Origin: a virus
Strand: one strand, 5' to 3'
DNA: 64,000 nucleotides
IMG/VR virus record: IMGVR_UViG_3300030419_007010
Coordinates: 97,728-161,727 of that record
The notes beneath the pieces were generated by a model. That model had not been told where the DNA came from. It worked only from the letters and a program-made list of their open reading frames with translations, and searched no databases. Both the position numbers and the translations under genes were made by a program. The first letter of the stretch is position 1, and each line of letters begins with the position of its first letter. Shown here one piece after another: positions 36,083-60,150 of this stretch.

Positions 36083-38038
36083 CTATAAGCTTTTGAAAGG
36101 AAATTCTACTTTTGCTACTTTTCCTAATGTTTTGTTCCAATTCTCTTTTGAATCTATTAGCCATTGTTTAAGAGCATCTAAGCTGCGTGCTGAAGCTTCT
36201 TGACCAGTTCTTAATCCTTCATTTCGAAGTTCAAAATCTAATTTGTTCTGTGCGGGCGTCCAAAGATTTTTTGCATTTTGTATGGGCTGGTAACCGAGTC
36301 TGTCTCGTGGCGCGTCTTTTTCATCTTCTATAAATTGCATAATATACCATAATTTTCGTTGCTTATATTCATATATTGCCATGGCGAACATTCGCTTGGT
36401 ACTGTACCCTCCAAGAGTTCCTGCCTCATATTGACTTCGAAGATATTGGTCGACATTTGCAAACTCTTGACCTCTCATATGAATCGATATAGCATTAGCT
36501 ATATATTCTAATTCTTTTTTATTTGGATTTCTTCCAATTAATTCATTAAAGGCTTTTTTGATATAAGGTACAGCTTGTCTAGTGTATTTATGCATTTCTC
36601 TTCGCTTAACATGAACAAAGGACATCTTATTGTCAAAAGTTTTAATATGATCTACTGCGGTTGCACTAAAGAACACTGCCTGCATAGGTTCTGCATGGTG
36701 AATCATACCTTTACCTGTATAATCCGATACCCCATCGACGCCGATTGCTCGGAGAGTCTTTGCCCAAGCTTTCATATCATTAGTTTTTTGTTTGGTGTAA
36801 CTTCTTGTAATATTCCATAATATTCCCAAAGGAGTCTTAAAACTGGAGGCTTCGGTAGCTAGCTGTACAGCGGGGCTCATTTTAATTGTTTGTATAGTTC
36901 CGGATTTATTATCTTTAATGCCTAGATGTTTTTTCCATTGTTCTGCAGTAAAATATCCCCATCTATTCCCAGTACCTATTGCATTACTAATACCCAAAGA
37001 CGGATAATCCGGATTCTTTTTTAATGCTTCTTGTGATTTTTGTTTTAGAAAATCCCACGCGTACATTACTGCTTTTGCATGATTTAAATTAAATCCTGGC
37101 TCCTTTATTACGCCTTCTGGATATTTTTCACTAGCTCTCTGTAAAGTTCGTACTGAATCGATTTCAGGATCATAACCTACTTTTTTATGTACTGCATCAA
37201 CGTGCTGTTGAGTAGCATCAAATTGACCTTTGACGGCGTAGCTAGCTACCCATCTTATCATATTACTAAAATAATCTAGACGCGTATAGTGGCTAGCGGC
37301 ATACTTAAAATATTTTTTTATCTCTTCAAATGCATCTTTTAAATTAGGATCTGATACTTGGCTTTCTAAAAAATACTCATCATCTTTTTTACTCAAAAGT
37401 CGTCTTAAATCATCAATAGCATCAAGTTCCTGTTCGACGTGCCCTTTTTGTACTTGTTTTTTAAATTTTCCAAATTCTTCGTACATGTAGGGCGCTTGTT
37501 CAAGATAACTGTCTATCTCTCCGTCCGGAGTTCTCCTAGCCATTCTTTTTGTAAGTTTTTTACCTACAGGTTCAGAAAATAACTTTATTAATTTTTCGTT
37601 TAAGTCTTGCTCTGTGAACTGATCATTATATAAAATTTCTGCTTCTTTTTTTGGCTTTACTATATGAAGAAATTTTCTTTCAGAAGCAAAAGGTATTTTT
37701 CCCTTTTCAAGCTGGGTGAGGATTTCTTCATTAACAGGATAAAAGTAGATTCCCATTGGAGTCTCCCAAGGAGATTTTGGATTGATGCCGACAATATTAA
37801 TATCAGCAAAGTGCATATAATGGGTTGGCTTTTGACCTGACGGAACAGAATACTTTTTAAGATTATCCAACATAGTCGGAAGCTGGATTCCACGTTTTTT
37901 AGCAGCAGTAGCTTCTTCAATATCAGATTCTAATTCTTTTAAGATATTAGAAACACTAGTATTTTTGCTCTCAACAATATTTTCTTTTTCATTGCGAGCG
38001 GATCCAAGAAAATTACGCCATTTATCTTCTAATTTCAT
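36083..38038 (-). CDS. large leader-tagged protein with possible split ADP-ribosyltransferase-like fold
   Basis: N-terminal MKLEDKWRNFL; YMHF, GIYFYP and EPMQAVFF resemble ART-PolyVal-type motifs (by eye). Confidence 0.5.
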   Translation of the reverse strand: MKLEDKWRNFLGSARNEKENIVESKNTSVSNILKELESDIEEATAAKKRGIQLPTMLDNLKKYSVPSGQKPTHYMHFADINIVGINPKSPWETPMGIYFYPVNEEILTQLEKGKIPFASERKFLHIVKPKKEAEILYNDQFTEQDLNEKLIKLFSEPVGKKLTKRMARRTPDGEIDSYLEQAPYMYEEFGKFKKQVQKGHVEQELDAIDDLRRLLSKKDDEYFLESQVSDPNLKDAFEEIKKYFKYAASHYTRLDYFSNMIRWVASYAVKGQFDATQQHVDAVHKKVGYDPEIDSVRTLQRASEKYPEGVIKEPGFNLNHAKAVMYAWDFLKQKSQEALKKNPDYPSLGISNAIGTGNRWGYFTAEQWKKHLGIKDNKSGTIQTIKMSPAVQLATEASSFKTPLGILWNITRSYTKQKTNDMKAWAKTLRAIGVDGVSDYTGKGMIHHAEPMQAVFFSATAVDHIKTFDNKMSFVHVKRREMHKYTRQAVPYIKKAFNELIGRNPNKKELEYIANAISIHMRGQEFANVDQYLRSQYEAGTLGGYSTKRMFAMAIYEYKQRKLWYIMQFIEDEKDAPRDRLGYQPIQNAKNLWTPAQNKLDFELRNEGLRTGQEASARSLDALKQWLIDSKENWNKTLGKVAKVEFPFKSL

Positions 38039-43804: not shown

Positions 43805-44058
43805 AGTTCAACGTCCTCGATGTCTAATTCTCTCATACTAGATAATACTCTTTGTACCACATCAGTAAGTCTTTCATATTTAGGATCAAAAGCATTGTGG
43901 ATAGATTCATGTTCTTCGTCTGTTAAAGCGGTTGGATGCCAATCTCCATTATACCAAATCATGATTTCTGCTTCGGGATCAAGAGTTTGAGCAGATAAAG
44001 CATGCTCATTTAAAAAATATCTTGGGTCAATACGTTTTTTATTTTTTTTTGATATCAT
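43801..44058 (-). CDS. hypothetical protein, leader variant
   Basis: KNKKRIDPRYFLNE N-terminus. Confidence 0.65.
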   Translation of the reverse strand: MISKKNKKRIDPRYFLNEHALSAQTLDPEAEIMIWYNGDWHPTALTDEEHESIHNAFDPKYERLTDVVQRVLSSMRELDIEDVEL

Positions 44059-46487
44059 TTTAAATATTTTCTCCAGGAATCAAATAAAATCTTATCTGTA
44101 ACTAGTTTATTTTGTTGGTTTTCTTCCATAACACTATCTATCACTCCCATTGTTTCTTCGGGAGTTGGCATGCCGGGTCTCCAACCACTAGGATCTTCTT
44201 GAGCGCCAGAAGCCGGCTTAAATAGTTGTGGCTCTTCTTCCATTGCCAGCTTGCCAAATTTTGCTGCAGCGTCTAGAGTTTGGTCTATAAGTATTTTATA
44301 AACTTCGTTTAAATACCTGTCTAAATACTTTGCAAACTGAATTGTGTCTTTAATTTGATCCAAATCGTCTGTCATTTTTATTTTCATATGGATGGTAGCC
44401 TTTAGGGCGGGACTCGGAGACACTTGAATATCAGGAGATAAAATCTCAACCTCAATATTTTTATATGGTATTGTATCCCAAGCTCTATCTTCTAAAAGCT
44501 TCATTTGTCGATCTTTTTGTTGATCTAGTTGTACGAATAGATCAATTGTTTTACGTAGCCAATCTTTTAAGAAGTCTGTATAGGGGCTACGAATATTCTG
44601 TTCAATTCTCTTTGTATATCTGGAGAGAAATGTTTTTTGTACTATTGACACTGCGCCCTGCTCACGTTGGTGTTGCTCACGAGTATCTTCTAACTTATCG
44701 TAATTTAAAGCTTTTAATAAGCCAGTGAGTGGTAAATCAAATTTAGGAGTGAAAAGATGGATGATACCTTTTTCAAATTTTGTATTTAGATTCTTAAATT
44801 GTTCTAGCTCGTCAAACATTTGCTTTCTAGCGTCATATTTTTCAGATTTTATGTAGCCCATATTTCCTAATTCTTCAATTGCTTTTTCTAAAATCTGAGG
44901 ATGTTTTTTATCGTATTCAGCTATTCTATTAAGAAATACTTTAAATTGGGTTACACCTTCGTGCTCATCGTGGTCTGGTTCAAATCTAACTCTAATAGTT
45001 TCTTCATAATCATTAATTTCTACTTCAACTTCATCAGGATATATACCTAGGTCATCCATCGCATCTTTGAATATATCAGTTAGTTGATCTTCATAATCAG
45101 ATGCCATTGGATTTCCATCGCCTGTATCAATCCATGGAAGGTCTTCCGGAAGATCGATTGATGTATAGGCATTCCAAATCCAGCGATGTCCACCCCAATC
45201 CCGAGGATCTTGAACATCTACATCAATATATTCAAAAGAGTGCTCGTGATCTCTTAGCGCAACTTCGAAATCTTCTGAGTCCGGACCGGCTGGATTTTCA
45301 CCTTCGTGCTCGCGAGCTACATACAAACAATCATGGGCGGCGGATTCGAATATTCTCTGTAGTACCTCTAATACTTCTTCAACATCATTAGGATCTTCTA
45401 TAGTTTCGTCATATTCTTCACCAAAATCTCTCACTAGTGTTTTGACAAGAGTCTGAACGTCTTCTGGTACGTCATCGCCCATTTCCAGATCCCTATTGAG
45501 TGTACTAAGTGTTTTTTCTGGGTTAGATACAGCACCTCCTGCTAACACATACTCCATATTTCTATAAAAATCAGAATGGTCAATATCTTTATTGTCTCTA
45601 TTATTAATATTAATAACGTCTTGATCTAAAACTGTTAGCGCTTGTAAGGAAGCATCATCACTCTTAGGTAAAAATTTACTAATAACATAATAAAAGGATT
45701 TACCTTCGTCTGTATATTTTGTATACCATTCTTCATGACCATCATAGCCCTCTACATTACAATTTCCTCTTGCAATACACCAACTTGTGGCTCCTCGTGC
45801 TCCACCTAGATGGGCTGCAGCCTCAACAGAATATGGACGAGCTAATACAAAATAATCATTTTCAATAAGAACTTCAACATCTTCAAGAGCTTTCATTTTT
45901 TCGCCTCTCTTCTTTTGGCGCTTTGAAAACCCTAGTTCTTTAGTTACAGATATAAGATCATCTAAACTTTTGTAGGAATTGATGTCTTTGTTTTTAATTC
46001 TTTGAATGTTTTTGTGGAACTCTGCAATTTCATCGCCAATTTTTATAGCGTGATTAAAAAGCTCAACAAAGAATTCATCTTGGGGATTAGGCTCGTCTTT
46101 GGCCGGCCACGCGATGTTGACGCCTAGTGGCCCCTTTAACTGCTTATCTAGTTCTGCAGCTAGCTGTTTAGTCATCCACATAAGATACTTATTGTTTTTA
46201 GAGGGATCTAAATTAGCTAGACGGTCTACAAATCGATTAACTTGAGGATATTTTTTCTCTGCGTCCTCTTTACGACCTTCCGCAATAAGGGCTATTTCTT
46301 CTTCAGTTAAAGTATCTTCTTCAGCTAAGAATCCGCCTCGTCGACCAGTTGCTGAATCTGTAGAACTAGCATAACCATCAAATCCAATAGTTTCTCTTTT
46401 GGATTCATATCTAGAACTTTGATGACCAGGGCCCGGGCGTTGATTCTCAGTAAGAAAACTTCTCCATTTATTAACAAAGTCACTCAT
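44055..46487 (-). CDS. large acidic protein with W-R leader motif at both ends
   Basis: MSDFVNKWRSFLTE ... KILFDSWRKYLK; DPSKNNKYLMW and TSWCI motifs. Confidence 0.7.
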   Translation of the reverse strand: MSDFVNKWRSFLTENQRPGPGHQSSRYESKRETIGFDGYASSTDSATGRRGGFLAEEDTLTEEEIALIAEGRKEDAEKKYPQVNRFVDRLANLDPSKNNKYLMWMTKQLAAELDKQLKGPLGVNIAWPAKDEPNPQDEFFVELFNHAIKIGDEIAEFHKNIQRIKNKDINSYKSLDDLISVTKELGFSKRQKKRGEKMKALEDVEVLIENDYFVLARPYSVEAAAHLGGARGATSWCIARGNCNVEGYDGHEEWYTKYTDEGKSFYYVISKFLPKSDDASLQALTVLDQDVININNRDNKDIDHSDFYRNMEYVLAGGAVSNPEKTLSTLNRDLEMGDDVPEDVQTLVKTLVRDFGEEYDETIEDPNDVEEVLEVLQRIFESAAHDCLYVAREHEGENPAGPDSEDFEVALRDHEHSFEYIDVDVQDPRDWGGHRWIWNAYTSIDLPEDLPWIDTGDGNPMASDYEDQLTDIFKDAMDDLGIYPDEVEVEINDYEETIRVRFEPDHDEHEGVTQFKVFLNRIAEYDKKHPQILEKAIEELGNMGYIKSEKYDARKQMFDELEQFKNLNTKFEKGIIHLFTPKFDLPLTGLLKALNYDKLEDTREQHQREQGAVSIVQKTFLSRYTKRIEQNIRSPYTDFLKDWLRKTIDLFVQLDQQKDRQMKLLEDRAWDTIPYKNIEVEILSPDIQVSPSPALKATIHMKIKMTDDLDQIKDTIQFAKYLDRYLNEVYKILIDQTLDAAAKFGKLAMEEEPQLFKPASGAQEDPSGWRPGMPTPEETMGVIDSVMEENQQNKLVTDKILFDSWRKYLK

Positions 46488-46502: not shown

Positions 46503-46907
46503 TTATTTTTCTGTGTTTTTCTGCTCTTTTAGCTTATTTTTAACATTCTCGTTAATAGGGACTGGTTCTCCGTCGCCATCTACACGGACAAATGTCATGT
46601 CAGTTGTGCATGCAACCTTCTGTGAACCATTATATGGGCTATGTCTTCTCGCCTCTAAAGTTATAGTAATAGAGGTCGAACCAATGTCTTTTATCTTGCC
46701 ATAAATTTTAATAATTTGACCAGGACGAATTGGTTTTCGAAATATAACTTCTGAAATTTTTACAGTGACCATTCTTGGCGATTCTGCTAGTTCTGCGGCT
46801 AACGCCGCTCCGGATTCATCTAGCCAAGCTAGTAGTAATCCTCCGAAAAGATTACCGTGGAAACCAACATCTTTTGTCATACAGACATGAGTTGAAAGAA
46901 GGCGCAT
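46503..46907 (-). CDS. hotdog-fold acyl-CoA thioesterase (YciA-like)
   Basis: HGNLFGG.LLAWLDE, MVT, F.KP...G, G.TS, TFV.VD. Confidence 0.9.
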   Translation of the reverse strand: MRLLSTHVCMTKDVGFHGNLFGGLLLAWLDESGAALAAELAESPRMVTVKISEVIFRKPIRPGQIIKIYGKIKDIGSTSITITLEARRHSPYNGSQKVACTTDMTFVRVDGDGEPVPINENVKNKLKEQKNTEK

Positions 46908-46937
46908 AATATAATAATTCCTTTATGTTATAAAAAG

Positions 46938-47289
46938 TGGTGGAGGTGCCGGGAGTCGAACCCGGGTCCAGAATACATCAAATAGTTTGTCATTCACAAG
47001 GTTAGTTCATTTTATATTTTTTTTAAAGGTCTTCTTCAAAAACAAACAAAATAATTTGACCAATGAAGTATACCGCTAAGTATACAATGCTAAAAATATT
47101 TAAAGAGGCGCTAGCAATCCTCTGTCGCTACTTTGGTTAAGAAGGTAGTTAGCGAACCCCCTTATGCTGCGAGAGCATAATTTGCAACATTATCGTTGGC
47201 AATTATAGTTTCAGCGTTTTAACAGAGCCACGCTGCCCTCTGCCTTGCACAAAATATTATACTTACCCTGTCGATACCAGTTCACCCCC
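46938..47289 (-). ncRNA. ssrA: tmRNA; resume-frame tag ANDNVANYALAA* at 47162-47200
   Basis: 5' GGGGGTGAACTGGTATCGAC pairs with 3' CACCTCC-ACCA (G3:U70 Ala identity); T arm CCGGG-TTCGACT-CCCGG; ATAATT-GCC resume context; tag ends YALAA. Confidence 0.96.
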
Positions 47290-47304
47290 GTATATTATTT
47301 TTCA

Positions 47305-47406
47305 TTAGCACTTTCCAGCGCAGTCTACACAAGAGCAGCATCCACAGCAACAGCAGCAATGGTTGTTATTGAATAAGTTTGCTAATTTATGAAGTAAATT
47401 TTTCAT
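47305..47406 (-). CDS. 33-aa poly-Cys micro-peptide MKNLLHKLANLFNNNHCCCCCGCCSCVDCAGKC
   Basis: Not in track; AGGAG SD, ATG, 10 Cys; paralog adjacent. Confidence 0.75.
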   Translation of the reverse strand: MKNLLHKLANLFNNNHCCCCCGCCSCVDCAGKC

Positions 47407-47432
47407 TAGTTTGTCTCCTAGCTTTTAAAATT

Positions 47433-47525
47433 TTATAACAAATGAGCGAAATATCTGAGGGGTATAGGCCACTTGCAACACCCACAACAGCAGCAACAAT
47501 GTTTTTTATTAAGTATCTTTTTCAT
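47433..47525 (-). CDS. 30-aa poly-Cys micro-peptide MKKILNKKHCCCCCGCCKWPIPLRYFAHLL
   Basis: Not in track; AGGA SD; same HCCCCCGCC core with synonymous codon changes. Confidence 0.7.
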   Translation of the reverse strand: MKKILNKKHCCCCCGCCKWPIPLRYFAHLL

Positions 47526-47609
47526 TAGTCTAGATTCCTAATCAAAAGGAACAATATAAATAGTTTTTATAAATTAATATTACAACATAGCATATGCCAA
47601 AATCGAATA

Positions 47610-47969
47610 TCATTGTTCTTTTTTTTCAAAAAAGCTTTTAATATCAAATTCTTTTAAGAGTTTTCGAAGTTGGGTTTTTCTAAGACCCAAAAAGCTAGCA
47701 GCCTCACCTTTTGTTCTCGCTGCTGAATAAGTATACATTAATACTGCTTCTCTCGCAATATTTGGAATTGATTGCCAAAGCTTAAAACCATATAATTTGC
47801 TGTCGACCACTCTAGCGGCACACTCTAATCTGAGAGCTATCATCTCTTCGAGAGTTAAGTTAGAAAGCATTATTTCAAATTCTTCGTTCGACTTTTTTTC
47901 TGAACGTAACTTATTGGAAATGCTATAATATTCATTATCTCCGTAGAGTTTCTTCTTTCTTTCCCACAT
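47610..47969 (-). CDS. Fis-like HTH DNA-binding protein
   Basis: C-terminal TKGEAASFLGLRKTQLRKLLKEFDI matches the Fis/HTH_8 pattern. Confidence 0.65.
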   Translation of the reverse strand: MWERKKKLYGDNEYYSISNKLRSEKKSNEEFEIMLSNLTLEEMIALRLECAARVVDSKLYGFKLWQSIPNIAREAVLMYTYSAARTKGEAASFLGLRKTQLRKLLKEFDIKSFFEKKEQ

Positions 47970-48034
47970 ATGATCTTAACAAATTCGAATATTCATGCTA
48001 CAATCTAAACACTAGCTTAACTAGCAATTAGTTG

Positions 48035-48835
48035 TTAAACAACACCTTCTAACTCTTCAGGAGCCGGCTGGTCTACAGGCTCCTCGGTACCGACACCCTG
48101 CTCGTATTCTGGTGTCGTAGGTTCTTCAACTTCTGGTGACAAGTCAGTTTCAAATTTATCAAAGTATAATTTTAAGTTAGTAATTAAGTAATCATAAAAT
48201 AATTCTTTATCTTCAGTAGATCCCAGCACGTCATATGAATCAACTATATTACTACTAATTTTCTTAAATGAAGTAAAGGCCATATTTCTACCTGTTTCTT
48301 CCTGACCAGGGATCCCAAACTCTTCCCTTTCATCAGGTGGCTCTTCTACAGCAGCTTTGTCATCGATATCGATAAAAGCATCATCAGGAGGACTAGCTCC
48401 CTCTCCTCCAATATCAACTTCTACTTCTTTTACTGATACTAGCTTACTTTCTTCTCCAGCTTTTGATGTGACTCTTGGTGGAGCTAGCGTATCTTCTACC
48501 GCCTTAATAACATGAGACCTAAAAGATTGGCGCTGCTCAACACTTGAAGTAAGTTTCTTAAAATCGTCTTCTAGAACTGGGATGATTTTCTTAAGTAAGT
48601 CTTCTAATACATTAATACCAGTAGATCTATGAGGGGCGGGATCATTATCATCTACACTAGTTTCTTTTAGAAGATCTTTAATAATACTACGAAGTTTTTG
48701 TTCTTCAAGTAAAGCCTGTTGCTTTTCTGTTTCTTTCTTTTCTAAAACTATAGAAATACCTTTTCGTATTATCTTGCGAAGTTTTAGTTCTTGTAAAAAT
48801 TGTTCTCTATTTGTTTGCATGGTTCCCGCTCCCAA
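48035..48835 (-). CDS. acidic hypothetical protein with KLRxII motifs (possible head-associated protein)
   Basis: ELKLRKIIR and EQKLRSIIKDLLKE; HRSTGIN; acidic Pro-rich tail. Confidence 0.65.
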   Translation of the reverse strand: MGAGTMQTNREQFLQELKLRKIIRKGISIVLEKKETEKQQALLEEQKLRSIIKDLLKETSVDDNDPAPHRSTGINVLEDLLKKIIPVLEDDFKKLTSSVEQRQSFRSHVIKAVEDTLAPPRVTSKAGEESKLVSVKEVEVDIGGEGASPPDDAFIDIDDKAAVEEPPDEREEFGIPGQEETGRNMAFTSFKKISSNIVDSYDVLGSTEDKELFYDYLITNLKLYFDKFETDLSPEVEEPTTPEYEQGVGTEEPVDQPAPEELEGVV

Positions 48836-59892: not shown

Positions 59893-60150
59893 CTACTCGT
59901 TTTCGCTAGGCTTTTTTGGTGTTCCATCTTTGGATAATATAATAAATGGCATGCCTTTTTGCCATTTGATTGTAACTTTACCGTTTTTGTAAAGACTTAT
60001 AGCACCATACACCTCGTCGGCTTGCGTATACATGCCAAGACTTTCATATTCGTCAGCCATTTGTTCTAATTTGCTGAGAGTGAAGTCTATTACCTCGCAA
60101 GTGTCGCTTGCTTTGTCACTTTCCCCTTTATTTTTATCATCCTCGGACAT
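59893..60150 (-). CDS. hypothetical protein
   Basis: ORF track. Confidence 0.6.
   Translation of the reverse strand: MSEDDKNKGESDKASDTCEVIDFTLSKLEQMADEYESLGMYTQADEVYGAISLYKNGKVTIKWQKGMPFIILSKDGTPKKPSENE

Follow-up and report, generated by a model that had tools for sequence, protein, structure and literature searches.

Immediately upstream of the tmRNA gene (ssrA) of an uncultured phage lie two very short open reading frames (sORFs), each encoding the nine-residue string H-C5-G-C2, and the question raised by this locus is whether they matter through the peptides that they encode or through the ribosomes that would read their cysteine codons. The original prediction had offered both answers, namely a cysteine- or metal-binding peptide pair and a ribosome-stalling sensor coupling Cys-tRNA supply to production of the phage ribosome-rescue RNA, and had regarded the arrangement as undescribed; we likewise found no description of it in the literature. 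We analyzed the locus in the context of a 64-kb stretch of DNA (hereafter the window) that forms the last 64 kb of a 161.7-kb viral contig (38% GC), and compared it with viral, metagenomic and protein collections.

The locus and its duplicated reading frame

Genes on the contig specify a major head protein, a portal protein, a large terminase, a ribonucleotide reductase and a DnaB-like helicase, and nearly all genes of the window lie on the minus strand. The terminase (TerL) shares 43% identity with the enzymes of Flavobacterium phage immuto and Microcystis phage Mel-JY01 and about 31-33% with its counterparts in T4-like cyanophages, and the source is therefore placed, by sequence comparison, as an uncultured marine myophage distantly related to T4. 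IMG/VR holds at least 598 relatives of this terminase, the best 80 of those at least 598 sharing 67-80% identity, and the records carrying TerL relatives are 27-81% complete. At the contig end, between window positions 60000 and 64000, the GC content rises from about 35-40% to about 50%.

Read along the minus strand, the locus comprises the gene for a 119-aa protein with a C-terminal helix-turn-helix-like region (47610..47969), a promoter-like block (47551..47585) that includes the heptamer CTATTTA (47563..47557), the 30-aa sORF-A (47433..47525), the 33-aa sORF-B (47305..47406), a spacer, the tmRNA gene (46938..47289) and, 30 nt further on, a gene for a 134-aa thioesterase of 4HBT fold (46503..46907; Pfam PF03061, E=5.6e-14). 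The stop codon of sORF-B occupies 47307..47305, and the 5' end of the tmRNA, at 47289, lies 15 nt further on. This RNA is of the one-piece type and was recognized both by ARAGORN, which gives the tag ANDNVANYALAA, and by Rfam model RF00023 (134.9 bits against a cut-off of 47; E=3e-53). The 119-aa protein has no match in Pfam or PHROG and is a syntenic neighbour, with homologues upstream of tmRNA in contigs L093, L097, L105, L108 and L331.

Both sORFs start in the context ACTA-ATG-AAA behind a Shine-Dalgarno (SD) sequence, AGGAG at 8 nt before the ATG for sORF-B and the weaker AGGA at 10 nt for sORF-A, and their H-C5-G-C2 segments differ at 5 positions over 27 nt, all of them synonymous third-position changes. 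On re-checking, the coordinates, SD sequences, start contexts, codon lists, CTATTTA site and 15-nt spacing given by the original prediction were all exact. Cysteine accounts for 0.89% of codons in the long ORFs of the genome, and runs of five or more cysteines occur, in six frames over the whole 161.7 kb, at sORF-A and sORF-B only; the two cysteine-run ORFs exceed chance expectation.

The two frames are not equivalent. With 10 Cys and 2 His in 33 aa, sORF-B is 55-85% identical to 74 members of the family described below and has all three of its features, an N-terminal helix, H-C5-G-C2 and a three-Cys tail. The H-C5-G-C2 segment is the only one of the three found in sORF-A, where relative to sORF-B a 21-nt in-frame gap deletes the core of the conserved helix and a Cys-free 13-aa tail bears no relation to that of sORF-B. 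Contig L093 (1.2 kb, from an NCBI metagenome assembly), a close relative, shares the upstream gene and the 15-nt distance to the tmRNA 5' end but has a single sORF, of the B type; the window differs from it by about 93 extra nt that correspond to sORF-A. Copies of the A type are absent from L093 and from all other IMG/VR contigs, and we rejected sORF-A as a conserved second paralogue on the ground that its form is present in no other contig; by these comparisons it is a truncated partial duplicate peculiar to the window genome. The tandem ORFs proposed earlier thus exist in the window, whereas their conservation as a pair does not hold, L093 having only sORF-B.

A possible record of the duplication is the 11-mer CTAATGAAAAA, of which the window contains three copies, all at the sORF/tmRNA locus (0.25 expected). 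The third, directly after the sORF-B stop, opens a 7-codon ORF (47282..47305, minus strand) that overlaps this stop and ends in the tmRNA acceptor stem; its ATG is ATA in L093, so it is not conserved, and the copy probably marks the boundary of a repeat that remained from the duplication giving rise to sORF-A. The recurrence of CTAATGAAAAA at this place suggests that sORF-A arose by unequal exchange between short repeats. Since the differences between the H-C5-G-C2 segments of the two sORFs are purely synonymous, they also suggest that the cysteine codons of sORF-A were maintained for some time.

A family of ten-cysteine micropeptides

We scanned IMG/VR for DNA able to encode H-C5-G-C2 and retrieved 87 contigs, 85 of which carry, on translation, the same small gene; metagenome contigs yielded at least 83 further members (81 distinct), for a total of 142 distinct peptides in the two sets. 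The reading frame is thus widely conserved. Members share a plan in which an SD sequence is followed by M-K-x-x-L-H-K/R-L-x-N-L-F-N-x-x, then H-C5-G-C2 and a short three-Cys tail, over a length of about 31-34 aa, with longer forms of up to about 50 aa that have basic tails. In the two non-members among the 87 contigs (L030 and L053), the nine-residue motif lies within larger, unrelated Cys-rich proteins with repeated H-C4/5-G-C2/3 units. One variant, at L329 (G056:C1:5922-5948), has Tyr in place of the first Cys of the run, nine Cys and an AT-hook tail, and the run is therefore not absolutely invariant.

The family is, as judged from its distribution, phage-restricted and almost never annotated. 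Among some 185,000 species genomes only two true members were found, both on MAG contigs of about 100 kb that we suspect to be binned phage DNA, and the other 18 matches in this set are GC-rich off-frame repeats. A profile search returned 9 matches in 5.8 billion protein clusters and 8 in 1.84 billion representatives, none of them named and the long ones apparently over-extended or chimeric. Pfam, PHROGs and NCBIfam contain nothing for sORF-A or sORF-B, and sequence searches of the ESM Atlas and the PDB with the peptide were equally empty. Neither the region nor the peptide matched any isolate phage by BLAST, the peptide being probably masked by the low-complexity filter, and a literature search on the motif, on phage metallothioneins and on Cys-rich small phage proteins found nothing relevant.

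Because the search was built on H-C5-G-C2, the invariance of this motif follows from its design and only the other positions are informative. Across 77 distinct genes, conservation reaches 96% for His at position -10, 94% for Leu at -8, 92% for Phe at -4 and 81% for each Asn at -6 and -3, while the codons for conserved residues vary freely (CAC/CAT at 47/27; TTA, TTG, CTA and CTT for Leu). The same 77 genes give a pN/pS of 0.38 at a pS of about 0.8, and nearly all family sORFs have a GGAG-type SD 6-10 nt before the ATG. Exactly ten Cys are present in 136 of the 142 distinct peptides, despite tails that differ in layout (x-C-x-x-C-x-G-x-C, x-C-x-x-G-C-C, T-C-C-C-K-E-K and others), that in 11 variants carry an RGRP AT-hook and that are Lys/Arg-rich in others. 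The cysteine codons of the run favour TGC (60/17 at the second Cys), the genome as a whole TGT (274:126), and this preference does not suggest selection for slow decoding. From these patterns we conclude that selection acts on the encoded peptide, in agreement with the protein-level selection originally proposed from the synonymous differences between the two sORFs, and that sORF-B is a genuine gene, with a 33-aa peptide as its predicted translation product.

The N-terminal helix motif is a part of this peptide in its own right, accompanying the Cys cluster in 158 of 160 occurrences. AlphaFold2 places a helix at residues 2-11 of sORF-B and leaves the Cys part without a defined fold, at low confidence (mean pLDDT 66.7), and the predicted helix is moderately amphipathic, with a hydrophobic moment of 0.50 that 3% of shuffles reach. 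We had considered that this N-terminus might be one of the generic leaders found on other proteins of the clade (see below), an idea that arose from a similar hydrophobic spacing, and rejected it; the motif is almost never found apart from the Cys cluster, and the Glu that the leaders have is missing from it.

Transcription of the locus and linkage to tmRNA

The CTATTTA heptamer probably marks a phage-specific, late promoter. The 35-nt block in which it lies (47551..47585) differs from L093 at a single position, with diverging flanks, and among the 74 unique regions upstream of family sORFs CTATTTA is the commonest 7-mer, found in 17 of them between -28 and -64; the tmRNA-linked loci have the variants CTAATTA, CTAGTTA and CTACTTA. 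Eight of the 20 gene-strand copies in the genome fall between genes, whereas intergenic DNA makes up 5.4% of the genome (p=5e-6); most of the eight sit 12-42 nt ahead of a gene, and the genes concerned include neighbours of the one for the major head protein (other intergenic sites: G000 155480, 135777, 82059, 31619, 28556, 25846 and 496). The inference of late expression rests on this occurrence before structural-looking genes. The heptamer is usually preceded by A-rich sequence.

Since the sORF-B gene lies between the CTATTTA motif and the tmRNA gene, the tmRNA of the window is most likely made from the same transcript as sORF-B. A consensus scan of the minus strand between 47290 and 47570, which could miss a promoter inside sORF-B, found no promoter- or terminator-like site, and no terminator-like site was found in 46800-48100, hence none between the tmRNA and the thioesterase gene. 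One transcript would then carry sORF-A, sORF-B, tmRNA and probably the thioesterase message, from which host RNase P would free the tmRNA 5' end. RNA-library contigs (X7 and X18-X20) cover only the tmRNA of relatives, and none of these contigs extends over the sORFs. No smpB was found in the phage genome, and the phage tmRNA must therefore work with host SmpB. In T4, clusters of tRNA genes yield stable RNAs that RNase P releases from polycistronic phage transcripts. The window locus resembles these clusters in having a stable RNA within a few nucleotides of its neighbours, with no promoter of its own and presumably released by RNase P, but differs in that the upstream element is a putatively translated ORF, with family stops 0-15 nt from the putative cleavage site.

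Linkage of the sORF to ssrA is not peculiar to the window, although it is far from general. The tmRNA 5' end lies 0-37 nt after the sORF stop in 11 contigs (the window, L093, L014, L019, L038, L049, L055 and four metagenome contigs), which corresponds to 7 of the 78 loci from IMG/VR and 4 of the 80 from metagenomes (about 5-9%), and 0.3-1.6 kb downstream of the sORF at 7 further IMG/VR and 6 metagenome loci. When whole records were searched, a tmRNA was found in 22 of 49 sORF-bearing records and in all 7 of those at least 90% complete, and in 14 of the 22 records with both genes the two are 13-140 kb apart. In unlinked genomes the tmRNA gene has a near-consensus sigma-70 promoter (for example TTGACA, 17 nt, TATAGT) or follows directly behind another protein gene, and no Cys-rich ORF precedes it; in L095, L096, L100, L103, L107 and L108 the sigma-70 promoter lies 5-15 nt upstream of the mature tmRNA 5' end. 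The absence of a promoter-like site for tmRNA alone in the window agrees with the coupling originally proposed, whereas the sigma-70-type promoters of the unlinked relatives do not. From these arrangements, the phages of the clade probably differ in the timing of tmRNA expression, which would be early in some and late in others.

Two further elements were seen upstream of tmRNA. In several unlinked relatives (L097, L098 and L331), a conserved hairpin-like element (G-A-G-T-C-T-A-G-C, stem, loop) is located between the helix-turn-helix gene and the tmRNA, about 40-90 nt upstream of the latter. In L102 (G028), a 64-aa ORF ends 15 nt before the tmRNA and, by eye, resembles BFD-type [2Fe-2S] proteins (C-x-C...C-x-x-C).

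On the tmRNA tree, eight of the linked loci form one well-supported clade and the other three fall elsewhere, with at least two changes of linkage forced by supported branches and four by parsimony. This looks like mostly inherited gene order with few rearrangements, the product of tight packing with no dedicated sensor. As adjacency is rare and linkage is clustered, the function of the family therefore cannot depend on tmRNA, and a sensor of Cys-tRNA acting on tmRNA fails as the family's general role, with adjacency in about 5-9% of loci and distances of 13-140 kb in 14 of 22 records. In the linked lineages, functional coupling is possible, because adjacency recurs on the tree in two to four places and the stop is always 0-37 nt away.

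For these lineages above all we considered a leader peptide acting in cis, whose cysteine run would sense charged tRNA-Cys, with stalling or termination controlling the folding and maturation of tmRNA and, at other loci, the translation of the overlapping downstream gene. The mycobacterial polycysteine sORFs, which are leaderless attenuators (Canestrari et al., bioRxiv 10.1101/834739), provide a precedent: they too are short, unannotated first-cistron ORFs with consecutive Cys codons in a longer transcript, and their criterion of at least two consecutive Cys codons is exceeded by the five, then two after one Gly codon, of the phage sORFs. The short distance from stop to tmRNA in 11 contigs, the lack of a visible tmRNA promoter between the sORFs and the tmRNA in the window and the overlap of many other sORFs with the next gene start (ATGA) would fit such a leader, as would the fact that the phage encodes no tRNA-Cys. 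A cis element on phage ssrA is also known from Melnitz-like marine myophages, in which a glutamine riboswitch follows the early promoter of a two-piece tmRNA (PMC9004378); these resemble the window in that the ssrA of a marine myophage shares its transcription unit with a separate element, but the window tmRNA is one-piece and lies behind a coding sORF and a probable late-type motif.

The comparison with mycobacteria breaks down elsewhere. The phage sORFs have SD sites, so that their mRNAs are not leaderless, together with a 5' leader and a promoter-like motif 28-64 nt upstream; they precede tmRNA, a leader-tagged protein or a replication gene, whereas the mycobacterial attenuators control cysteine and sulfur genes, and the genes downstream in the phages have no connection with sulfur metabolism. 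In the phages there is no evident RNA duplex for a ribosome to mask: the 280-nt leader is no more stably folded than shuffled sequence (z=0.25), there is no terminator, and Rfam identifies no known cis-regulatory RNA between the CTATTTA block and the tmRNA. The minimum-energy fold of the leader, computed from the single sequence, does contain weak base pairing between the G-run at the tmRNA 5' end and codons of sORF-B. Unlike the mycobacterial sORFs, the phage peptide is conserved at the amino-acid level outside the Cys run, and three tail Cys in variable positions, as well as AT-hooks, would be useless to a codon sensor. A leader that counts codons is thus disfavoured because it needs neither a fixed number of thiols nor His nor a helix, and, with tmRNA adjacent in so few loci and distant in most genomes, we consider it unlikely, an estimate that applies mainly to the tmRNA-linked lineages.

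A narrower form of coupling would leave the peptide its own function and let translation of the ten-Cys cistron also gate ribosome rescue in the linked lineages. Termination 0-15 nt from the RNase P site would leave a ribosome in place that prevents the tmRNA acceptor stem from folding, a shortage of Cys-tRNA that stalls ribosomes in the run, or the absence of translation, would free the stem, and the RNase P cut would leave the sORF message nearly non-stop and hence a substrate for the released tmRNA. We consider such a gate very unlikely.

A putative metal-thiolate peptide and its alternatives

What the family conserves is a two-part peptide, predicted to consist of a short N-terminal amphipathic helix followed by a thiol cluster made up of H-C5-G-C2 and three further Cys. 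A fixed thiol count at variable positions, two His and a helix suited to docking are features to be expected in a small metal-thiolate protein. Ten thiolates and two His would bind metal in a metallothionein-like cluster (Zn, Cu(I) or Fe-S), and the helix, with the AT-hook in some variants, would dock the peptide on a partner or on DNA. We therefore favour, at about even probability, a reading of sORF-B as a late metal-thiolate peptide whose transcript, in the lineage of the window, also carries the tmRNA. The peptide half of the original prediction accordingly seems to fit the anatomy best, without the conserved pairing that it included.

Like the metallothioneins SmtA/BmtA, MymT and Cup1, the phage peptide is very small, consists of Cys to about 30%, contains CC, C-x-C and C-x-x-C motifs, keeps a fixed number of thiols and has His that could serve as an additional ligand. 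The Cu(I) cluster of Cup1 is built on 10 Cys, and the domains of mammalian metallothioneins have 9 or 11. In contrast to these proteins, the phage family is confined to phages and combines a five-Cys run with an amphipathic helix containing an invariant Phe; five consecutive Cys are unusual even among metallothioneins. Searches of Pfam, NCBIfam and the PDB gave neither homology to metallothioneins nor similarity to a solved structure, and the proposed metal binding follows from composition and conservation.

The leader-plus-core look of the peptide, a conserved helix and then a Cys-rich C-terminus, could also be that of a RiPP precursor (streptolysin-S-type, ranthipeptide or SCIFF-type), in which a leader is read by a maturase that modifies the Cys-rich core. 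The neighbourhood speaks against this: across 86 loci, whose sORF neighbours include primase-like, SbcCD-like and leader-tagged proteins, no neighbour gene is conserved, and the 89%-complete genome contains no radical SAM (PF04055) or YcaO (PF02624) domain. The NCBIfam RiPP models have no match, and the most invariant part is the core and not the leader. With no maturase nearby or in the genome, the streptolysin-S-type reading raised earlier is not supported, and we rate the RiPP class as a whole as highly improbable.

The genes that follow the sORFs have a feature of their own. The one directly after the sORF begins, in at least 39 of 78 loci (about 50 by eye), with one of two N-terminal motifs, M-K-L-T-K-S-Q-L-K-Q-I-I-K-E-E or M-K-L-L-L-E-N-W-R-K-Y-L, found on otherwise unrelated proteins, and its start often overlaps the sORF stop (ATGA); in the window, the genes at 44055-46487, 36083-38038 and 48035-48835 carry a leader motif. 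The I-K-E and L-L-E triplets of these leaders resemble T4 prohead-protease sites, and by this resemblance the motifs may be capsid-targeting leaders.

These neighbours bear on a role of the peptide as a DNA-associated or virion-packaged protein, which would condense DNA in the manner of a protamine through thiol or metal cross-links and might be co-packaged with the leader-tagged proteins next to it. The frequency of the leader motif on the next gene, the 11 RGRP AT-hook variants and further Lys/Arg-rich tails, and the presence of the promoter-like motif at structural-looking genes would all agree with packaging. Most members, sORF-B included, nevertheless lack a basic tail, and the N-terminus of the peptide differs from the clade leaders and is never found on other cargo, which makes such a role improbable; it is compatible with metal binding and not opposed to it.

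A peptide that is phage-restricted, small and equipped with its own promoter-like motif could instead inhibit a host protein or act on the host thiol pool with no structural metal, and the conserved polar stripe of His6, Asn10 and Asn13 on the helix suggests a specific contact. A count fixed at ten thiols, however, is more in keeping with a defined cluster than with a generic redox buffer, and we regard the proposal as quite unlikely.

Proteins shorter than about 35 aa are routinely lost by gene callers, and the family described here has more than 140 distinct members in abundant marine phages against 8-9 unnamed database entries. Its linked and unlinked genomes offer a natural system for the study of phage tmRNA expression, in which the same RNA is placed under a sigma-70 promoter or behind a putatively translated Cys-rich ORF in related genomes. 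If sORF-B and its relatives bind metal as proposed, they would constitute a phage-specific metallothionein-like protein and point to a role for metal or thiol handling in infection by large marine phages.
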